DNA from: a virus
Lineage: Duplodnaviria; Heunggongvirae; Uroviricota; Caudoviricetes
IMG/VR virus record: IMGVR_UViG_2778261538_000003
Length of the DNA: 42,281 bases
Direction: 5' to 3' (one strand)
Shown: piece by piece, positions 4,679 to 37,159 of the stretch
Position numbering within the stretch: position 1 is the first letter of the stretch
How the letters are laid out: each line of letters starts with the position of its first letter
Program-made: the position numbers and the translations under genes
Notes under the pieces: generated by a model
The model's input: the letters and a program-made list of their open reading frames with translations, nothing else
Databases searched by the model: none
What the model was told of the DNA's origin: nothing

Positions 4679-5874
4679 GACTCCACCGTTATAACGATAT
4701 TTTTCGGGGTACAGGACGCAGATTCGTTGTATCTGATATCAATGTTTGATGACGACAAAGCCCCCGGGGATTTCCCAATCGTCAGTTCCTGAATATCGTA
4801 ATAGCGTGCATTCCCGCCACTCACCACGCCAAGATTCGCCGGTGAGTAAATGCGACTTAAAAGGACCGAATCACCAATCATCAGACTATTGATATAGTCG
4901 GAAATAGCCTGCTGGATCTGCTGCCCTATCTGTGAGGTATAACCCGTAAAAACTTTTAATTTAATCAGGGCATAAACAGGCACATCACTGGAACGCGAGA
5001 ATTTGATTACATGGGGATTGCCGTATTTATCCGGAACCGTAACGGATGTTGTACCGTGAGTGGCTGTCCCCTGGCCTTTATTCCCTCTGATAGCCTGAGC
5101 AATATCCGTTACATCACCGCCATCCACAATTACAGCAACAGAGTGTGGCGGTAACCCGTTACCGTCCTCCGAACCAGTATCGTTTTCATAGAGTTTGTGG
5201 CGGGTTACACCGGTAACATTAGAAACAGCACCATCCAGTGCTTCAAATGGGGTTATTGATGGCAACGCAACACTTTGCGACTGGCGGATACGTAACTCAG
5301 CGTCAGTTTCTGCCGGAGTGCCCACAGTGGCTGCAGCAGGATTGGTTACCGAAACCCAGCCACGGGTTGGCGTATTAATTTCAGTGATAGTTCCAGCCAG
5401 CGCCGCCACTGCACCACTGACGGAACATGTTGCGGTCACCATCACTGTACCATCCACGCCTACCACCACTGAAGCAGGCAAACGCCATATCACATTATTA
5501 CTGTCTTTCACGCTGCCATTAATGATGGTTGTTCCGGCAGTTCCTGTAAGAAGCAAATCAACCGTAGAGTTCGTCGCGCCTTTACGTGAAATACCATTTA
5601 TTTTCACGTTACAGGTCAGTGCAGCCCCATAGCCGGTTGCCGGTGAAAAACAGTTGTAGACAGTTATCGCAGTATTATTGGCATCATGAATCGCCAGCGC
5701 CATCAGAGCCACCATCTGGCCGTCTTTGCTGTCCGGTTCGAGGTAGGCATCACTGCCATAAATCTGCTGAAAATAGCTAATCAGGGTGCTGAGTATCGTC
5801 TGATAATCAGGCGCACTGATCCCCTCCGCGGTTACCTTTGCAGATAAACCGAGAGAATCAAGGTTCAGAGCCAT
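4675..5874 (-). CDS. baseplate J-like protein
   Basis: 399 aa; size and position typical of the baseplate wedge protein in contractile-tail operons. Confidence 0.6.
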   Translation of the reverse strand: MALNLDSLGLSAKVTAEGISAPDYQTILSTLISYFQQIYGSDAYLEPDSKDGQMVALMALAIHDANNTAITVYNCFSPATGYGAALTCNVKINGISRKGATNSTVDLLLTGTAGTTIINGSVKDSNNVIWRLPASVVVGVDGTVMVTATCSVSGAVAALAGTITEINTPTRGWVSVTNPAAATVGTPAETDAELRIRQSQSVALPSITPFEALDGAVSNVTGVTRHKLYENDTGSEDGNGLPPHSVAVIVDGGDVTDIAQAIRGNKGQGTATHGTTSVTVPDKYGNPHVIKFSRSSDVPVYALIKLKVFTGYTSQIGQQIQQAISDYINSLMIGDSVLLSRIYSPANLGVVSGGNARYYDIQELTIGKSPGALSSSNIDIRYNESASCTPKNIVITVES

Positions 5875-26124: not shown

Positions 26125-28386
26125 TTACAATCCAGATTGCAAAATTTCGCAAGATTTATATATTTCGCGCAATTCTTCGTTGCTGAAATCGTTATTTTTT
26201 ACAAGAATCCAAATCCTATATACAAACCCGTCAATTTTTACGCGTACGGGTTCCCGCTTTGTTCTTTCTTTCAAAATGCGAGTAATATGCTTCTGGTTAA
26301 TTTCTACATCCATTCCTGCTTCTGCCAGTATTGCGTTAACAATTTGTTGATAAGTCATTGCTGGCACAGGCGGATTATCCAGGATTTCAATAAGAGCAGC
26401 CTCCACATCGCTCTTATTGCTTTCAATCATCAGAAGGCGTTCTTTCGTCTCGGGGGCGCGCTGCCAGTTAAAGCGAGACAGGTCAACGCCCATCAGATAC
26501 CAGTACACCTGGGCGATAAAGTCGCTGTCGCTTAGCGCACCGTACAGGCTGGCGTAATGCTCTTCAGTTGCGGCGAAGTCAGGGCCCCCCAGCACAGCGA
26601 TACGTCGGTCTTCCTCTGGCAGCGCCAGCGCATCAAAGTGGTTGGTGTAGAACAGAAAGCCGGTGTATATATCCATCGTTTTTTTGCTGCCATATTTGCG
26701 GTTCACTTCAAACCGTGGTTCTGTCAGCACGTCACGGATCTTATCGTTCACCTCATACCGCTTATCATTTTCGCGCACCTCGTCAATGGTGCATAGAAGC
26801 GTATTGTACAGATAGTCATGGAACTGGTTATCGCACAGGATCTTCATGCGAGTACGAGCACAGTTCCACGGACCAAGCACGCGCTCCATTAACTGGCTGA
26901 CCCATCCTCTGCCCGTACCATGTGCGGAAGCCACATGCAGAATAGAAATCGGGCATCGACGCTCCGGACGCTGAACCATCCACCCCAGACGGGCGATGAA
27001 AAACTCGCGCTGCCAGGCATCAGGTACCAGATACGCCATATGATTAAGGAACGTGGACACCTTACTTGTATCCGCTGTACGTGGATGCTCAGGCATATAA
27101 AATTCGTTTATCTCAAACCGCCCGTCGAAACGCTCGATAATACGTCCCGCACCGGGCTTATAGCCTGTCGTCTCAGCAATCTTCTTATGCCGATGCTCTA
27201 TCCACCGTTTGGTTGCGGGAGTTGGTTGCCCTTTCCCTTCTGGCGGGAACTGGTAAGGCGCCATCAGGTTTTTGAACGACTTCATATCCATCATGCACTG
27301 ATATGGCGGTCGGCTAAGATCACATACCTGGTCACCCTCGATGACGTAGATAAAGCGTTCCAGAAAATGAGCTGTCATATCTGTATTAATATCGGTAAAT
27401 TCAGGCTTATCGCCATCTTCAACCACCGTGAGATCTTCGAACAGGGATTGCGTATAGCCGTAGCCTTCCAGCCAGTCGGCATCAGTAAGCCCCGCATCGG
27501 TGTTGTGCATGCTTTTAAAATGTCCCTGTTCAAATCCCCCCGTCCCTTTTGGGAAATACTTAATGGATGTTTCGCTGCAACCGTTGCTGTATTCTGACTC
27601 ATCCCGAAACGGTTTCAGATTGCGGGAACCATCAGAGCTGACTGACAGAGTCCACCCGTTCGCGTCAAGCCAGTCGGCGACATCATCTGTCGCGGAAGGA
27701 TCAACACAGGAAAGATCACGCTGACGTCCTGCACCTGCGGTATAGCTGTCTTTCACGGGTAAGTTATCCGCCAGACGCTGCCACAGGCTTTCGAGCTGTT
27801 CAGATGTAATTTTCAGAGGTTCGCCGGGCAGACCGCAGTCCCACTGAATACGTTCGCCTGCCGGATGGGTACCACAAGCCACAAACTGCTGGCCCTTAGC
27901 GAGCAGCTCTATTTGTTTGTTTTCGCCTTCCAGGCGGTGACCACGTTTACGGTAGTCGCCATCAACAGCAATCAGGTACAGGCATTTATGACTGTCAGCC
28001 CGCCAGCGACGTGGCGGAAGTTCCCCCAGGCATGACAGGATAATATTGCGTACGATCTCCTGCATCCCGGCGTCATTGATATCGCAGTCCAGAGCCACCA
28101 CCCCGTCGCCAGTACGAACGCAAATACCGTAATCGGGTTCGTTCGACCACCGGGCAAAATCGTTTTCCGTAACAACATAGTTAGCCCAGTCGGGGATACC
28201 AACAACCTTACGTTGGCCATTGTAGCGACTGGGGGTTTTGCCGAAATTATGAGACAGCTTGCTATTAGGCGACAGTTCTGCACAGGGATTGGACACCACA
28301 GGTAAAAGCCTGTCTGTCATCCCCAACACCAGATCGAAGTGGAACCACTCATCGGGCGTAGCTCCCCATGGTTTGTTATCAGACAT
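26125..28386 (-). CDS. replication protein with N-terminal Prim-Pol (AEP-type primase-polymerase) domain and C-terminal primase/NTPase-like region
   Basis: Motifs GDGVVALDCDIND, SHKCLYLIAV and IELLAKGQQFVACGTHPAG fit the three Prim-Pol motifs; 753 aa; next to the iteron array. Confidence 0.65.
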   Translation of the reverse strand: MSDNKPWGATPDEWFHFDLVLGMTDRLLPVVSNPCAELSPNSKLSHNFGKTPSRYNGQRKVVGIPDWANYVVTENDFARWSNEPDYGICVRTGDGVVALDCDINDAGMQEIVRNIILSCLGELPPRRWRADSHKCLYLIAVDGDYRKRGHRLEGENKQIELLAKGQQFVACGTHPAGERIQWDCGLPGEPLKITSEQLESLWQRLADNLPVKDSYTAGAGRQRDLSCVDPSATDDVADWLDANGWTLSVSSDGSRNLKPFRDESEYSNGCSETSIKYFPKGTGGFEQGHFKSMHNTDAGLTDADWLEGYGYTQSLFEDLTVVEDGDKPEFTDINTDMTAHFLERFIYVIEGDQVCDLSRPPYQCMMDMKSFKNLMAPYQFPPEGKGQPTPATKRWIEHRHKKIAETTGYKPGAGRIIERFDGRFEINEFYMPEHPRTADTSKVSTFLNHMAYLVPDAWQREFFIARLGWMVQRPERRCPISILHVASAHGTGRGWVSQLMERVLGPWNCARTRMKILCDNQFHDYLYNTLLCTIDEVRENDKRYEVNDKIRDVLTEPRFEVNRKYGSKKTMDIYTGFLFYTNHFDALALPEEDRRIAVLGGPDFAATEEHYASLYGALSDSDFIAQVYWYLMGVDLSRFNWQRAPETKERLLMIESNKSDVEAALIEILDNPPVPAMTYQQIVNAILAEAGMDVEINQKHITRILKERTKREPVRVKIDGFVYRIWILVKNNDFSNEELREIYKSCEILQSGL

Positions 28387-28389
28387 GGG

Positions 28390-28590
28390 TTACGCCTTTT
28401 GTCTAGCTGTCACTTCCTGAAAAAGCTTTTCTATCGCACGTACTGTAGAAAAGCGAGGGTCAGAATGAACCCCGGTGAGAAGCCGACTAATAGAAGACTG
28501 CTTCACGCCTGCAATTTCGGCAATTTGGTTTTGGGTATACCCTGAATCAATCAAGCTTTTGACCATCTCTTGTGGTGTTAGTCCGGACAT
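28390..28590 (-). CDS. Cro-like HTH transcriptional regulator
   Basis: 66 aa with HTH (TQNQIAEIAGVKQSSISRLLTG); divergent from the CI-like gene, first gene of the minus-strand early operon. Confidence 0.7.
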   Translation of the reverse strand: MSGLTPQEMVKSLIDSGYTQNQIAEIAGVKQSSISRLLTGVHSDPRFSTVRAIEKLFQEVTARQKA

Positions 28591-28731
28591 ATTTAAGTCT
28601 CCACTTTCGTCTATAGCGCAAATTTATACGAAAACGGATTATTCAGCAATACGGCAATTCTATATCATCCTGGATTAAAATATCCGATAACGCATAATCA
28701 CCGTCCCTGTATACAACATGGATGAATCCAA

Positions 28732-29406
28732 ATGATTGATACTACCGATATCCTTTCTCAAAACATCAAGTACCTGATGGACAAAGCCAAGATAAGCTCG
28801 ATAACTGAGCTGGCACGTCGGTTACAACTGAACCAACCAACGCTACACAGGCTGGTATCAGGAGAGGTGAAAGATCCGAAATACGCAACGTTAAAGCAGA
28901 TCGCCGACTACTTCCACGTGTCACCAATAGACCTGGCAGAAAGGAGCCTTCAAGAAATGGAGAAAGAGGACGCGACGGGTATAAAAACGTATATTTCTCT
29001 TAGGTTTAATAAAGTACCTGTTTTGGGAAACACTCAGCTAGGCGTTGGAGGACTTTGGAGCGACACCCAATATTCAGTAGGTAGCAGTGATGGTTTCATA
29101 TACTGGCCGACAAAGGATGAAGATGCATACGCCCTGAAATGTGTTGGTGATTCAATGATGCCTAGAATCAAAGAGGGTGAGTTCGTAATCGTCGAACCCA
29201 ACCACGACTACACTCCTGGTGATGAAGTACTTGTGGTTACCCGGGACGGTGAGGTCATGGTTAAAACCTTCTTGTTCGAACGCGATGGCCTGTTCCATCT
29301 AATGTCTGTAAATGAAGATCATCCACCAGTCAGAGTACCACGCGAAAACATTGAAAAAATCCATTACGTGGCGGGGATCGCCAAATCCGCGCTACGCATG
29401 TACTAA
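28732..29406 (+). CDS. CI-like repressor (N-terminal HTH, C-terminal LexA/S24 autopeptidase domain)
   Basis: HTH near the N-terminus; S24 Ser/Lys dyad context CVGDSMMPRI ... VMVKTF. Confidence 0.9.
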   Translation: MIDTTDILSQNIKYLMDKAKISSITELARRLQLNQPTLHRLVSGEVKDPKYATLKQIADYFHVSPIDLAERSLQEMEKEDATGIKTYISLRFNKVPVLGNTQLGVGGLWSDTQYSVGSSDGFIYWPTKDEDAYALKCVGDSMMPRIKEGEFVIVEPNHDYTPGDEVLVVTRDGEVMVKTFLFERDGLFHLMSVNEDHPPVRVPRENIEKIHYVAGIAKSALRMY

Positions 29407-29436
29407 CCTTTACAGTCTGATAACTTACTTCTGATC

Positions 29437-29469
29437 AAACCGCTCTCCACAAGGGCGGTTTTCTTATTT
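29437..29469 (+). terminator. rho-independent terminator downstream of the CI-like gene
   Basis: AAACCGCTC-tccacaag-GGCGGTTTT followed by CTTATTT on the plus strand. Confidence 0.5.
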
Positions 29470-29490
29470 GCAAAATAATTCATTTTCGTA

Positions 29491-29519
29491 TTGACGCAAA
29501 ATCCCATAACGCATATAAA
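29491..29519 (+). promoter_or_regulatory. near-consensus sigma70 promoter (TTGACG - 17 bp - TATAAA)
   Basis: -35 at 29491-29496, -10 at 29514-29519; points into an ORF-free region; the spacer contains the 10-mer ATAACGCATA also found upstream of the CI-like gene. Confidence 0.5.
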
Positions 29520-29781
29520 TACGATGCCGCATAATTAATGCGTTTTTTAATACCAGCTCTTTAACAAACTGAACCGCGTGACAGGTAAGCCGCAGTACTC
29601 CTGGCAAAATGAAATGGCACCCGATGGGATCGAGGTAAGCGCCGAGTCCGTATGCGTACGGTAAGCGTAGAGGACAACACCGCGACGAACTGATAAGTCA
29701 CGCAAGTTGAAACGCCCCGACGATGGGGCGCTTAGTTCCTTTAACTCTGGGTGGCCGGAAGGGTACCCATGCTTAAAGAAA

Positions 29782-30351
29782 TTACTGGTTGTAAGGATCG
29801 TAATCCGTGATTGCCTTCCCCGGATTTTCATCTTCAGCAGGCAGTCTGGCCTCTAAAGCATTTCGGTTGAACAGATAGGAAGCCCTACAGTGCGAACAAA
29901 CCATATTAACGGCTCGCCCAAGGCCTGGCTTAATAACCAGACCTTCCGCTTGCAATATAGATTTTCTCTTTTGCTCGTAGCAATTGGGACAAATATAAAC
30001 CGGAGATTGGTCAGTATCTGCAGAAAGCTTGCTGCGATAGACCAGAGTACCCCGCATAGGCTGGTAAAGTTCATAGCTCGCCGCTTCAGCGGCCCAGTTC
30101 TCTTGCTTTACTTTCTCATTTTCCAGTTCAACAATTTTCTCCTTAGCCGCAATCAGCAGCTCCTGAAGCGACATTTGCTGCATCTGAACATCCATTAGCT
30201 TATCGAGTAAGGTGTGCGTCTTCTCTTTAACTGCATAGTCGACAGTCAGATTCTGAATCTCTCTTGCTGCTCCAACCGCGCCTTTAATTGCTCCTCCCAC
30301 GCCGGATAACGATTCAGTTATCCGGGAAAGAATTCCTTTTTCTTCAGACAT
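29782..30351 (-). CDS. hypothetical coiled-coil protein with C-terminal CxxC...CxxC zinc ribbon
   Basis: 189 aa; ATG with GAGAG upstream; CPNCYEQ...CSHCRA; transcribed opposite to both the CI-like gene and the early-left operon. Confidence 0.5.
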   Translation of the reverse strand: MSEEKGILSRITESLSGVGGAIKGAVGAAREIQNLTVDYAVKEKTHTLLDKLMDVQMQQMSLQELLIAAKEKIVELENEKVKQENWAAEAASYELYQPMRGTLVYRSKLSADTDQSPVYICPNCYEQKRKSILQAEGLVIKPGLGRAVNMVCSHCRASYLFNRNALEARLPAEDENPGKAITDYDPYNQ

Positions 30352-30481
30352 ATCTAATCTCTCTCAAACTGTAGGGGTGAAGAGATATTAGACGATTTCT
30401 CACTGTAGGGGTACAAGGAGAACCACCTCGCCTGATGTGGTTAAAAGCAGGCACTCGATGATATCCATGTAATTGCTGTGT

Positions 30482-30507
30482 GTAGTCTTTGCCCGCCGCA
30501 AATGACG
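30482..30507 (+). terminator. rho-independent terminator preceding the early-left operon
   Basis: GCCCG-ccgcaaatga-CGGGC followed by TTTTTT on the plus strand. Confidence 0.6.
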
Positions 30508-30554
30508 GGCTTTTTTATGTCTGAAAGCGCACTCGCAACAGCGCGCTCCCCGAT

Positions 30555-30725
30555 ATGAAAAAAGGAATACAACCGATGAAACCTGAACACCTCTATCGAC
30601 TGACGGGGCGCGATGTTCTCCGTTATCGCCGTAAAAACTTCGATTTGATGACCGGTCTGGCCGTTGCCACTGCGCTCGGTCTGATCATCACTTTCATTCT
30701 CCTTGTAGCGAGGACCACAGTATGA
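30555..30725 (+). CDS. small membrane protein (56 aa), translationally coupled to the next gene
   Basis: Hand-translated [56 protein letters not shown]; its stop overlaps the downstream start (ATGA); below the ORF-track size cutoff. Confidence 0.3.
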   Translation: MKKGIQPMKPEHLYRLTGRDVLRYRRKNFDLMTGLAVATALGLIITFILLVARTTV

Positions 30726-33544: not shown

Positions 33545-34174
33545 TCACTCAGGAATCTTAATCTTTCTCAATTCTTTATTTAGTTCACAGATCTTTTTCT
33601 TAGACGGGAAAGTATCATACATCCAAAAACCAACAGTCTCTAAAACTATTATCATAACCATATACACAAGATAATTTAAAAGGCCTTCATTTTGCCCTAT
33701 GGAAATAATGCAGATAATAGAAAAAAGGGTAAACAGCACAAAACACAGAAAGGAAAACAGACGACTAATAATAAATAAAAAACCTGAAAAATCAACATTA
33801 ATAAAAAACACTCCGTTATCTTTCTCTATATAATTCTGAAGCTTAATCAACTGATTTATATACTGTCTTTTTTCTAATCTATTGCAAATGTAAATAACAT
33901 CTCTTCGGTTATAAGAGGATTGCAATTTCAGCGCATCACGAATAATTTTATCATTTATTCTTTTTTCTATGGCTTTCTTATCCTCCTTATCCAGATAACG
34001 TTCATACTTAATTAAATATAAAATTAACTTCTTGACATATTTAGGCTCTTTATACTTATAATTAAAAATGATCTTTCTTATCCAGACTCCCATAACAATC
34101 AAACATGAAAAAATATATCCAGCTATTTTCTCCAGATGCTCTGTATGGTCAATCAAGTATTGGATCATATGCAT
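33545..34174 (-). CDS. hypothetical membrane protein (very AT-rich cargo gene on the opposite strand)
   Basis: 209 aa, Lys/Ile/Tyr-rich with one N-terminal and two to three C-terminal hydrophobic helices; GC far below the flanking genes. Confidence 0.55.
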   Translation of the reverse strand: MHMIQYLIDHTEHLEKIAGYIFSCLIVMGVWIRKIIFNYKYKEPKYVKKLILYLIKYERYLDKEDKKAIEKRINDKIIRDALKLQSSYNRRDVIYICNRLEKRQYINQLIKLQNYIEKDNGVFFINVDFSGFLFIISRLFSFLCFVLFTLFSIICIISIGQNEGLLNYLVYMVMIIVLETVGFWMYDTFPSKKKICELNKELRKIKIPE

Positions 34175-36348: not shown

Positions 36349-37110
36349 ATGCAGGAACTAACTGAAATGCCGATCAACTATCCATACCCGAGAGAATCTT
36401 TTCCTGACTTTTTGAGGGAGTGTGGGTTCACCAATTTTTCCCACGAACAGCGTGAGACTTATGACTGCTATCGTTTAACGAATGGCGTAATTGTTAACCT
36501 TTACACCACCCGGACCATTCAGTTTCAAGGGAACCCTCAAGAACGTCCCAATGTTGAAACTGCAATAATGTCCCATTTAGGAACGCCCCCCACGGCAACA
36601 CCACTAGCCGTAGAACAGCCATCTGAGCTTCCCAAAAAGATATTCATTGTTCACGGCCATGACCATACTGCAAAGGAACAACTTGAGCTAATCCTTCATA
36701 AACTTGGATTACCAGACCATTTCATTTTGCAGAATACGGGAGGGACTGGACTCACCATTATTGAAGAGCTTGAACGTGAAATTGGGCAAGGACAAACTGC
36801 TACTCGTTTCGGGATTGTTCTTTTGACACCTGATGATATGGGATACTCAAAGCGCGCCGGTGAAGCAGAAATCCAACCCCGCGCAAGACAGAACGTTGTA
36901 CTCGAGATGGGTATGCTTCTTTCGTCCTTAGGGCGCAGCAATGTAGCAATCCTTCAGAAACAGCACCTAGAACAGCCTTCTGATGCTAACGGGATTTTGT
37001 ATCTGAATTTCAACGACCATGTACGTGAAACAGTTCCTCGTCTAGTGCAACGGTTACAAAATTCTGGTTTCGAATTTACACAAGCTCAAATAGCTAACGC
37101 TTCCTCGTAA
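36349..37110 (+). CDS. TIR-like domain protein (COG4271-type) with unknown N-terminal domain
   Basis: C-terminal half carries KIFIVHGHD ... FGIVLLTPDD ... RARQNVVLEMGML ... VAIL, matching the TIR-like nucleotide-binding fold as recalled; own terminator downstream. Confidence 0.6.
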   Translation: MQELTEMPINYPYPRESFPDFLRECGFTNFSHEQRETYDCYRLTNGVIVNLYTTRTIQFQGNPQERPNVETAIMSHLGTPPTATPLAVEQPSELPKKIFIVHGHDHTAKEQLELILHKLGLPDHFILQNTGGTGLTIIEELEREIGQGQTATRFGIVLLTPDDMGYSKRAGEAEIQPRARQNVVLEMGMLLSSLGRSNVAILQKQHLEQPSDANGILYLNFNDHVRETVPRLVQRLQNSGFEFTQAQIANASS

Positions 37111-37132: not shown

Positions 37133-37159
37133 AACCCTGCATTGCGGGGTTTTTTATTT
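37133..37159 (+). terminator. rho-independent terminator after the TIR-like gene
   Basis: AACCCTGC-att-GCGGGGTT followed by TTTTTTATTT. Confidence 0.7.

Follow-up and report, generated by a model that had tools for sequence, protein, structure and literature searches.

The DNA analysed here, a stretch of 42,281 nucleotides from a tailed phage (IMG/VR record IMGVR_UViG_2778261538_000003; hereafter the window), carries a conserved 176-nt module, present once in each phage, that represents a new RNA family. By computational comparison, this module was found just 3′ of a repressor-controlled early-left promoter, was conserved and non-coding, began with a boxA identical to that of the Escherichia coli rrn operons, had a covarying structure, and was exchanged in a mutually exclusive manner with the antiterminator RNA put of phage HK022. 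The probable function of the module is processive antitermination in the early-left operon, as a boxA-led and protein-independent RNA. We infer that it is transcribed from this promoter, as the plus strand, and that its antitermination activity depends on Nus factors. More tentatively, it may be a third, so far undescribed solution to early-operon antitermination, in which an rrn boxA and a pseudoknotted domain would give rise to a Nus-factor-bearing, rrnTAC-like polymerase with no phage protein, i.e. an RNA replacement for lambda N that is interchangeable with put.

The window belongs to a temperate E. coli phage or prophage and is present in many E. coli chromosomes. Escherichia phage vB_EcoM-606R2 showed 99.8% identity to a 401-bp query covering positions 29400-29800. 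The features surrounding the module and the elements of its fold are listed in Table 1. A long early operon on the plus strand starts at 30555/30576 and extends over more than 12 kb. It encodes a 49-aa protein, a 300-aa protein, DUF2800 and DUF2815 proteins, a DNA polymerase, a helicase and others, the first early gene being located at 30576-30725 (+). The early leader thus runs for about 1 kb ahead of the first plus-strand gene and is antisense over the convergent 189-aa gene.

Table 1 Features of the window around the conserved module (positions are those of the window; in the fold elements, "with" joins the two strands of a helix).
Feature	Position	Strand	Remark
Prim-Pol/DUF5906 replication protein	26125-28386	-	
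Cro-like HTH protein	28390-28590	-	
cI-like repressor gene	28732-29406	+	HTH and Peptidase_S24 domains
Intrinsic terminator of the cI-like repressor gene	29437-29461	+	10-bp stem, then T-run
PL-type early promoter	29491-29519	+	TTGACG (29491-29496), 17-nt spacer, TATAAA (29514-29519)
Operator-like site ATCCCATAACGCATAT	29501-29516		Overlaps -10; matches 28682-28697 in the cro/cI intergenic region
Perfect 15-bp palindrome CGCATAATTAATGCG	29528-29542		Followed by T6, to 29548
Whole conserved module (boxA and structured domain)	29556-29731	+	Alignments; covariance model R1
boxA GCTCTTTAACAA	29556-29567	+	E. coli rrn boxA and start of its spacer
P1	29576-29582 (GCGTGAC) with 29697-29703 (GTCACGC)	+	Closes the domain
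Three GGTAAGC repeats	29584, 29634, 29660 (29584-29666)	+	Helix end, UAA linker, start of next helix
P2′	29590-29597 with 29678-29685	+	4/8 pairs with double-sided changes; 76% of cells paired
Pseudoknot, 3 bp	29608-29610 with 29706-29708	+	Links multiloop to tail
P3 hairpin (ACCCGAU GGG AUCG-A-GGU)	29619-29636	+	6/7 pairs covary
P4	29639-29643 with 29664-29668	+	Encloses P5; GC to AU and CG to GC changes
P5 hairpin CCGUA-UGCG-UACGG	29648-29661	+	AU to GC in L053
P6 GC-rich terminal hairpin CGCCCC-GACGAU-GGGGCG	29713-29730	+	
Convergent 189-aa gene	29782-30351	-	Stop codon at 29782; no Pfam match
Terminator-like hairpin GCCCG..CGGGC and U6	30491-30521	+	Just 5′ of the first early gene

The 189-aa protein has a coiled-coil-like N-terminal half and a zinc-ribbon-like CxxC...CxxC motif at its C terminus. 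The slot of this gene holds variable cargo, since siblings encode a 174-aa protein there, or a 68-aa protein together with an HNH endonuclease. The gene is probably a moron expressed in the lysogen, and early transcription would oppose it. An 11-nt direct repeat, ACTGTAGGGGT, is located just 5′ of its start (30368-30378 and 30402-30412, 34 nt apart) and may be a regulator-binding site for its promoter. Inside the early replication operon, the annotation of ON470579 shows a gene with a TIR-like domain (about 36349-37110, +), 3′ of which lies a plus-strand terminator (37133-37151), as well as a minus-strand gene (33545-34174, -). These two genes are further candidate defence or moron inserts for early transcription to cross.

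The preliminary description had reported a TTGACG-17-TATAAA promoter at 29491-29519, and the promoter is present at exactly these positions; a consensus scanner missed it only because it required a T at position 6 of the -10 element. Transcription is predicted to start near 29526. In siblings of this immunity type, the promoter reads TTGACA-17-TATAAA (11/12 matches). A separate -35/-10 pair was seen at the same spot in nearly every heteroimmune relative. Most heteroimmune left-flank types hold their own TTGACx-17/18-TAxxxx promoter there, pointing into the module, which lends comparative support to the promoter. The distance from the end of -10 to the boxA of the module was 16-66 nt in the heteroimmune types with a called promoter. 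The operator-like site ATCCCATAACGCATAT across -10 is a repeat of ATCCGATAACGCATAA in the cro/cI intergenic region, and the slightly longer segment 29501-29517 (ATCCnATAACGCATA) is identical to a cro/cI intergenic site at 15 of 17 positions. About 10 of the 11 immunity types had type-specific 12-mers in common between the cro/cI region and the promoter, clearly more than in shuffles. The palindrome CGCATAATTAATGCG is restricted to the window's own immunity type, and its half-site CGCATAAT also occurs at 28691 in the cro/cI intergenic region. Given this half-site and the sharing of operator words within immunity types, the palindrome is probably an operator just 3′ of the start site. This is more likely than the second cI terminator that had been considered for the hairpin at 29528-29548, because as RNA the palindrome forms only a weak hairpin (-4.8 kcal/mol) and is immunity-type-specific.

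A repressor ORF with the S24 motif (G[DN]SM) was located upstream of the module and co-oriented with it in nearly all of the 95 loci with enough upstream DNA, usually ending 124-173 nt ahead of the module. The promoter at 29491-29519, which is 3′ of cI and its terminator, co-oriented with them and accompanied by operator-like sequences, is by these sequence features the equivalent of lambda PL. Lambdoid loci are homologous from the predicted start site onwards, and their 63-nt leader is 100% identical to the annotated pL leader of phi80.

Both edges of the module are sharp, the left one at GCTCTTTAACAA (29556) and the right one after GGGGCG (29730/1). The flanks in relatives belong to many unrelated types on the left and to several on the right. 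BLAST found copies in 104 of 5426 complete E. coli genomes, and many of the matches were limited to query positions 157-331 with unlike DNA on both sides. Pattern scans recovered the module from more than 100 IMG/VR viral contigs, and it also occurs in Citrobacter, Pseudocitrobacter, Trabulsiella and Pluralibacter. Annotated examples include modules behind two different repressors, ahead of differing cargo, and in a lambdoid prophage. Covariance model R1 scored 217 bits at 29556-29731 and gave one match per locus in 63 loci. Rfam 15 had no match at the gathering threshold across the window; at E values up to 10, its sole match in 29400-29850 was a chance snoRNA match outside the module, with no rRNA-like match in this region. 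No tRNA or tmRNA was found in the searched region, and a literature search of incomplete coverage returned no relevant prior description of such a module.

The module is non-coding because its relatives have 1- and 2-nt indels. The earlier observation that the region has no credible ORF therefore holds, and the minus-strand ORFs are not kept as frames. Minus-strand ORFs of 46-94 aa across the module were considered and rejected, given the 1- and 2-nt indels and substitutions without codon periodicity. In RefSeq, the region is either blank or covered by a called ORF (one in strain CX21). Hypothetical-protein ORFs are annotated over the module or its promoter in locus L003 (3921-4148, -) and in ON470579 (31989-32132, -, corresponding to 29464-29607 of the window). 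The indels of related copies suggest that these annotations are spurious.

The first 12 nt of the module, GCUCUUUAACAA, exactly match the E. coli rrn boxA and the start of its spacer (boxA-spacer ugcucuuuaacaauuua; Table 1 of PMC2724277). Positions 29556-29567 are the only exact rrn boxA match within the window, and 86 fetched loci had GCTCTTTAACA where the module starts. The boxA was unpaired in every fold considered, including the consensus fold. As in rrn-type boxA elements, the full GCUCUUUA consensus is single-stranded and would lie close to the 5′ end of a long, untranslated RNA. The sequence 3′ of the boxA is presumably unrelated to the rrn leader. No other boxA with up to two mismatches was found near the cro and primase genes.

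Further rrn-like sequences were noticed in individual loci. L053 has a solitary second boxA, TGCTCTTTAACAATT (1591-1605), about 590 nt 5′ of the module's boxA on the same strand and directly ahead of the SD-ATG of a 97-aa ORF. Solitary rrn-like boxA elements also occur in L121 (9814) and L170 (4477), and a boxA without an attached fold can occur in operons of the L053, L121 and L170 type. In L003, a lambdoid prophage of E. coli CX21, 47 nt (4913-4959, +) match positions 237-283 of 16S rRNA (helix 11; E = 2.5e-7). This stretch lies about 740 nt 3′ of the module in the PL leader region, inside an opposite-strand gene for a zinc-binding protein of the ECs_2282 family. It is curious to find such an rRNA-like fragment 3′ of an rrn-type boxA.

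The structured domain comprises six helices and a pseudoknot. Among its 41 pairs, 17 were changed on both sides (vs 0 of 500 shuffles; 1-6 pairs in slid-partner controls), and 92.4% of cells paired in the consensus fold of 62 distinct sequences, the alignment of which was fitted to the fold model and inflates the covariation counts somewhat. The divergent subtypes, for which a model-independent alignment was made as well, keep boxA and the unpaired blocks CCUGGCAAA, GAAAU and GUAGAGG. In P1, one position shows CG, AU, UA and UG, and a further GC to AU swap was seen in L181/L182. P3 is invariant in the main type, with fully swapped stems in three subtypes: CGAU/AUCG is replaced by GCGA/UCGC in the L125 group and by GGUA/UACC in L181/L182. 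In a divergent subtype, P5 is replaced by another hairpin and the P4 pairs are inverted. The pseudoknot column pair 55/152 was CG in 34 sequences, AU in 8, UA in 4 and UG in 1. Several lineages have U.G variants of P6, and L173 shows a swap from CG to UA in this hairpin. P2′ competes with a short hairpin, P2 (29589-29592 with 29602-29605), a possible alternative pairing. Two hairpins proposed by RNAalifold (34-37/47-50 and 91-94/117-120) were replaced by P2′, P4 and P5 on the basis of compensatory changes and the divergent subtypes.

Some of these elements had been noted in the preliminary description. The CCGTA-tgcg-TACGG hairpin was found as P5. The GC hairpin and the three GGTAAGC(G) repeats are real as well, and their positions needed correction by 1-5 nt, the former from 29718-29735 to that of P6 and the latter from 29582, 29632 and 29659 to those in Table 1. 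The repeats account for three of only nine GGTAAGC copies in 42 kb, all within 83 nt and on one strand. Natural deletions of the module in L149 (4965-5090), L083 and L118 have their endpoints in these repeats, and remove either the segment from repeat 1 to repeat 2 (51 nt lost) or that from repeat 2 to repeat 3 (26 nt lost).

Wobble pairs did not separate the two strands, since 92.4% of cells pair on the plus strand and 94.2% on the minus strand. The consensus-structure energies are equal on both, and folding of the plus strand of the window's own copy gave no stability beyond that of shuffles (z = +0.49). As a minus-strand sequence, P6 is a terminator-like hairpin with UUUCAACUU facing the convergent gene, and its equivalent in L004 was flagged as a minus-strand terminator. 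As such, P6 would also exclude minus-strand transcription from the module. The boxA, the promoters, the operon context and the U.G variants in P6 point to the plus strand as the functional one.

We collected 54 sibling loci via the 300-aa early protein: 28 had the module, 22 had a putL homologue, none had both, and four, which are partial contigs, had neither. The putL-like element of the 22 siblings is 70 nt long, starts right after heteroimmune promoters, shows 83% identity over 69 nt to HK022 putL, and is annotated as "putL: antiterminator RNA" in phages O276 and HK75. Its numbering agrees with that of the published put (A3-G7 with C15-U19; NANNAT at +23 to +28; PMC9378689). Locus L185 (put) and locus L013 (module) have both their left and right flanks in common, and the neighbouring genes of put-bearing and module-bearing siblings are 99% identical. 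With an adjacent gene that is 99% identical between the backbones, there is no nearby gene for a protein partner specific to either cassette. Three alternatives come after one and the same leader in the phi80-like backbone: phi80 nutL/N, the put-like RNA of HK639, or the module. No single protein was common to the two phage backbones carrying the module. Searches with the module region and with putL returned non-overlapping sets of phage records. As it replaces putL in the same slot of near-identical genomes, the module most likely does, by analogy, the same job as put, a protein-independent antiterminator RNA. It most likely uses host factors only, because the two backbones have no protein in common, phi80 N occurs in only one of 95 module loci, and nothing N-like was found in the window. 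It is known that put works in cis through the beta′ zinc-binding domain of RNA polymerase and needs neither Nus factors nor phage proteins, and the boxA in the module argues for a route different from that of put.

Relatives with minimal spacing place the module at the head of the early operon. In L125, only about 57 nt separate the module from the SD-ATG of the first early gene, and a small AAAGGCUUCGGCCUUUU hairpin lies between them. L164 has a canonical strong terminator (GCCCCUC-GCAA-GAGGGGC-UCUUUUUU) 20 nt ahead of the ATG of the first early gene. Neither locus leaves room for a second promoter between the module and the early genes, so that transcription must continue through the module. 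With the first early gene so close behind it, after a terminator, the module is, on this arrangement, the putative 5′ leader of the plus-strand early operon in these minimal relatives. The hairpin at 30491-30521 of the window is weak, and the homologous position is a strong canonical terminator in L164 and is conserved in L004. It is a candidate site for read-through by a leader-modified polymerase. In L004 and in the window, inserted genes separate the terminator position from the module by about 300-800 nt; among all loci, the shortest distance is about 57 nt and the longest about 800 nt. Action over such differing distances, with unrelated inserts in between, would fit a processive effect, unlike that of a local attenuator.

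Taken together, these observations suggest the following course of events. In the lysogen, the promoter at 29491-29519 would be repressed, and induction would lead to rightward transcription through the 176-nt module. The rrn-type boxA at its start would be a binding site for host NusB/NusE, and a pseudoknotted RNA domain of roughly 155 nt would come after it. The nascent module might then remain with RNA polymerase and make it termination-resistant (processive antitermination). This would allow the polymerase to pass through the antisense stretch opposite the 189-aa gene, which is not translated, and to overcome terminators both 5′ of the early operon and within it. The module would be the counterpart of lambda N plus nutL, or of HK022 put, acting in cis with no phage protein and probably with host Nus factors. 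In the absence of N, boxA/Nus complexes counter Rho-dependent rather than intrinsic termination, and it is for this reason that the role of the structured domain is suggested by the swap with put, by analogy.

It is conceivable, if unlikely, that the boxA alone matters: NusB/E-SuhB would guard the long untranslated leader from Rho, as happens at rrn operons and CRISPR arrays, and the fold would be a processing site, a stability element or a released stable RNA. Indeed, boxA alone shields untranslated RNA from Rho (PMC7665894), the leader measures about 1 kb and is antisense to a gene, and the boxA elements of L053, L121 and L170 stand in the same operon without a fold. However, boxA and fold always form one cassette with sharp boundaries, and L053 has a full module despite its upstream boxA. 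Moreover, it is the whole cassette that swaps with put, a suppressor of both intrinsic and Rho termination (PMC9378689).

A nut-type site, in which a large substitute for boxB tethers a phage N-like protein, is improbable. The order of boxA and then structure is the nut layout, and the boxA of lambdoid loci occupies the position of the phi80 nutL boxA. In lambdoid nut sites, the boxA in the leader RNA is followed after about 8-9 nt by the short boxB hairpin. The module has the boxA (29556-29567), but no short stem with a pentaloop; its boxA and spacer are followed by P1 of a 128-nt domain. When phi80 was searched with the covariance model, only boxA aligned. Early proteins of the window gave no Pfam match to an N-type protein, and the record annotates only a Q antiterminator; phi80 N had no significant tblastn match in the 42,281 nt (best E = 0.63). 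The single module locus with phi80 N is L003, where the gene lies downstream of the module and might supply a protein partner in the lambdoid backbone. The PR operon has no second, putR- or nutR-like copy of the module, each phage having one covariance-model match. The backbones without a common protein and the 99% identical genes beside put and module also speak against a tethered protein.

Equally improbable is a stand-alone small RNA acting in trans or as antisense on the 189-aa gene, or on host mRNAs, through its single-stranded 5′ end. The preliminary description had proposed a candidate small RNA, and the promoter and a non-coding structure supported by covariation bear out this part of the proposal; the stand-alone or antisense role gave way to that of an early-operon leader. 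An RNA of that kind would account for the own promoter, the conserved unpaired 5′ segment and the 3′ hairpin, and continued rightward transcription would be antisense to the 189-aa gene. The known RNAs oop and sar are short (about 70-77 nt) and overlap their target gene. The module shows no such overlap with, and complementarity to, a target gene, as it ends at 29731, about 50 nt before the stop codon of the 189-aa gene, and it is unchanged where this gene is absent or replaced by other cargo, which contradicts an oop- or sar-like regulator of the gene. In addition, the 3′ hairpin is without a U-tract in most relatives, the early genes of L125 and L164 have no room for another promoter, and the unpaired 5′ segment is accounted for as boxA.

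Even less probable is a ligand- or signal-sensing, riboswitch-like leader that gates the early operon and hence the lysis-lysogeny outcome. Its multi-helix pseudoknotted fold, invariant unpaired stretches, competing P2/P2′ pairings and downstream terminator resemble such a leader, but both the distance from module to terminator and the sequence between them vary, no common expression platform is visible, and the RNA with which the module is exchanged, put, is constitutive. Least probable of all is a function of the minus strand or of the DNA itself, either serving convergent genes as a terminator block or acting as a recombination site. In its favour, the minus strand folds at least as well, P6 resembles a minus-strand terminator, and the GGTAAGC repeats mediate deletions. 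Against it, the boxA, promoters and operon context are all on the plus strand, the module is conserved without any minus-strand gene to its right, a terminator at the minus-strand entry would block transcription of the remainder, and a terminator does not need six-helix covariation.

Few processive antitermination devices have been described, namely N/nut, Q, put, rrn boxA, RfaH/ops, LoaP and EAR. To our knowledge, put is the only phage RNA that antiterminates alone. The module is a second, unrelated RNA in the slot of put, bearing a perfect host boxA. If the proposed function is correct, the module links the put-type (RNA-only) and Nus-type (boxA) mechanisms, offers a compact system from nature for the reprogramming of RNA polymerase by an RNA fold together with host Nus factors, and accounts for early gene expression in many N-less prophages of Enterobacteriaceae. 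The exchange of antitermination cassettes at the edge of the immunity region matters for prophage annotation, and the module is a possible portable anti-terminator part for synthetic biology.

Among known systems, the order of cI, terminator, promoter with CI operators, leader and early operon is that of lambda. Like lambda oop and P22 sar, the module would be transcribed as a small non-coding RNA within the immunity region of a temperate phage. Unlike them, it is free of overlap with any gene, is conserved whatever its neighbours are, and would run on into an operon. The rrn leader (boxB-boxA-boxC) and the boxA of CRISPR arrays have the identical GCUCUUUAACAA ahead of a long untranslated transcript; in the module, neither rRNA nor a CRISPR array comes after this boxA, to which a large conserved fold is attached.

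Like lambdoid nut/N, the module has boxA first and RNA structure next at the head of the PL operon, and behind the identical 63-nt pL leader its boxA falls exactly on the annotated nutL boxA of phi80. Unlike nut, it lacks the 15-nt boxB hairpin and a counterpart of nutR, the window carries no N gene, and the boxA of the module is the full rrn consensus, whereas lambda has CGCUCUUA. HK022 put is about 70 nt long and forms two stem-loops without a boxA (PMC9378689). The module occupies the same slot just 3′ of the repressor-controlled early promoter PL, between the same flanks and never together with put, and both RNAs are non-coding and need no adjacent phage protein. It differs from put in its 176 nt, its leading boxA, its six helices and pseudoknot, and the lack of sequence similarity to putL or putR. 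HK022 has a second copy (putR) and the module is single-copy, as is put in the siblings of the module's backbone over the examined 3.5 kb on each side. The best-supported model is that the module works like put and nut and belongs to neither family.
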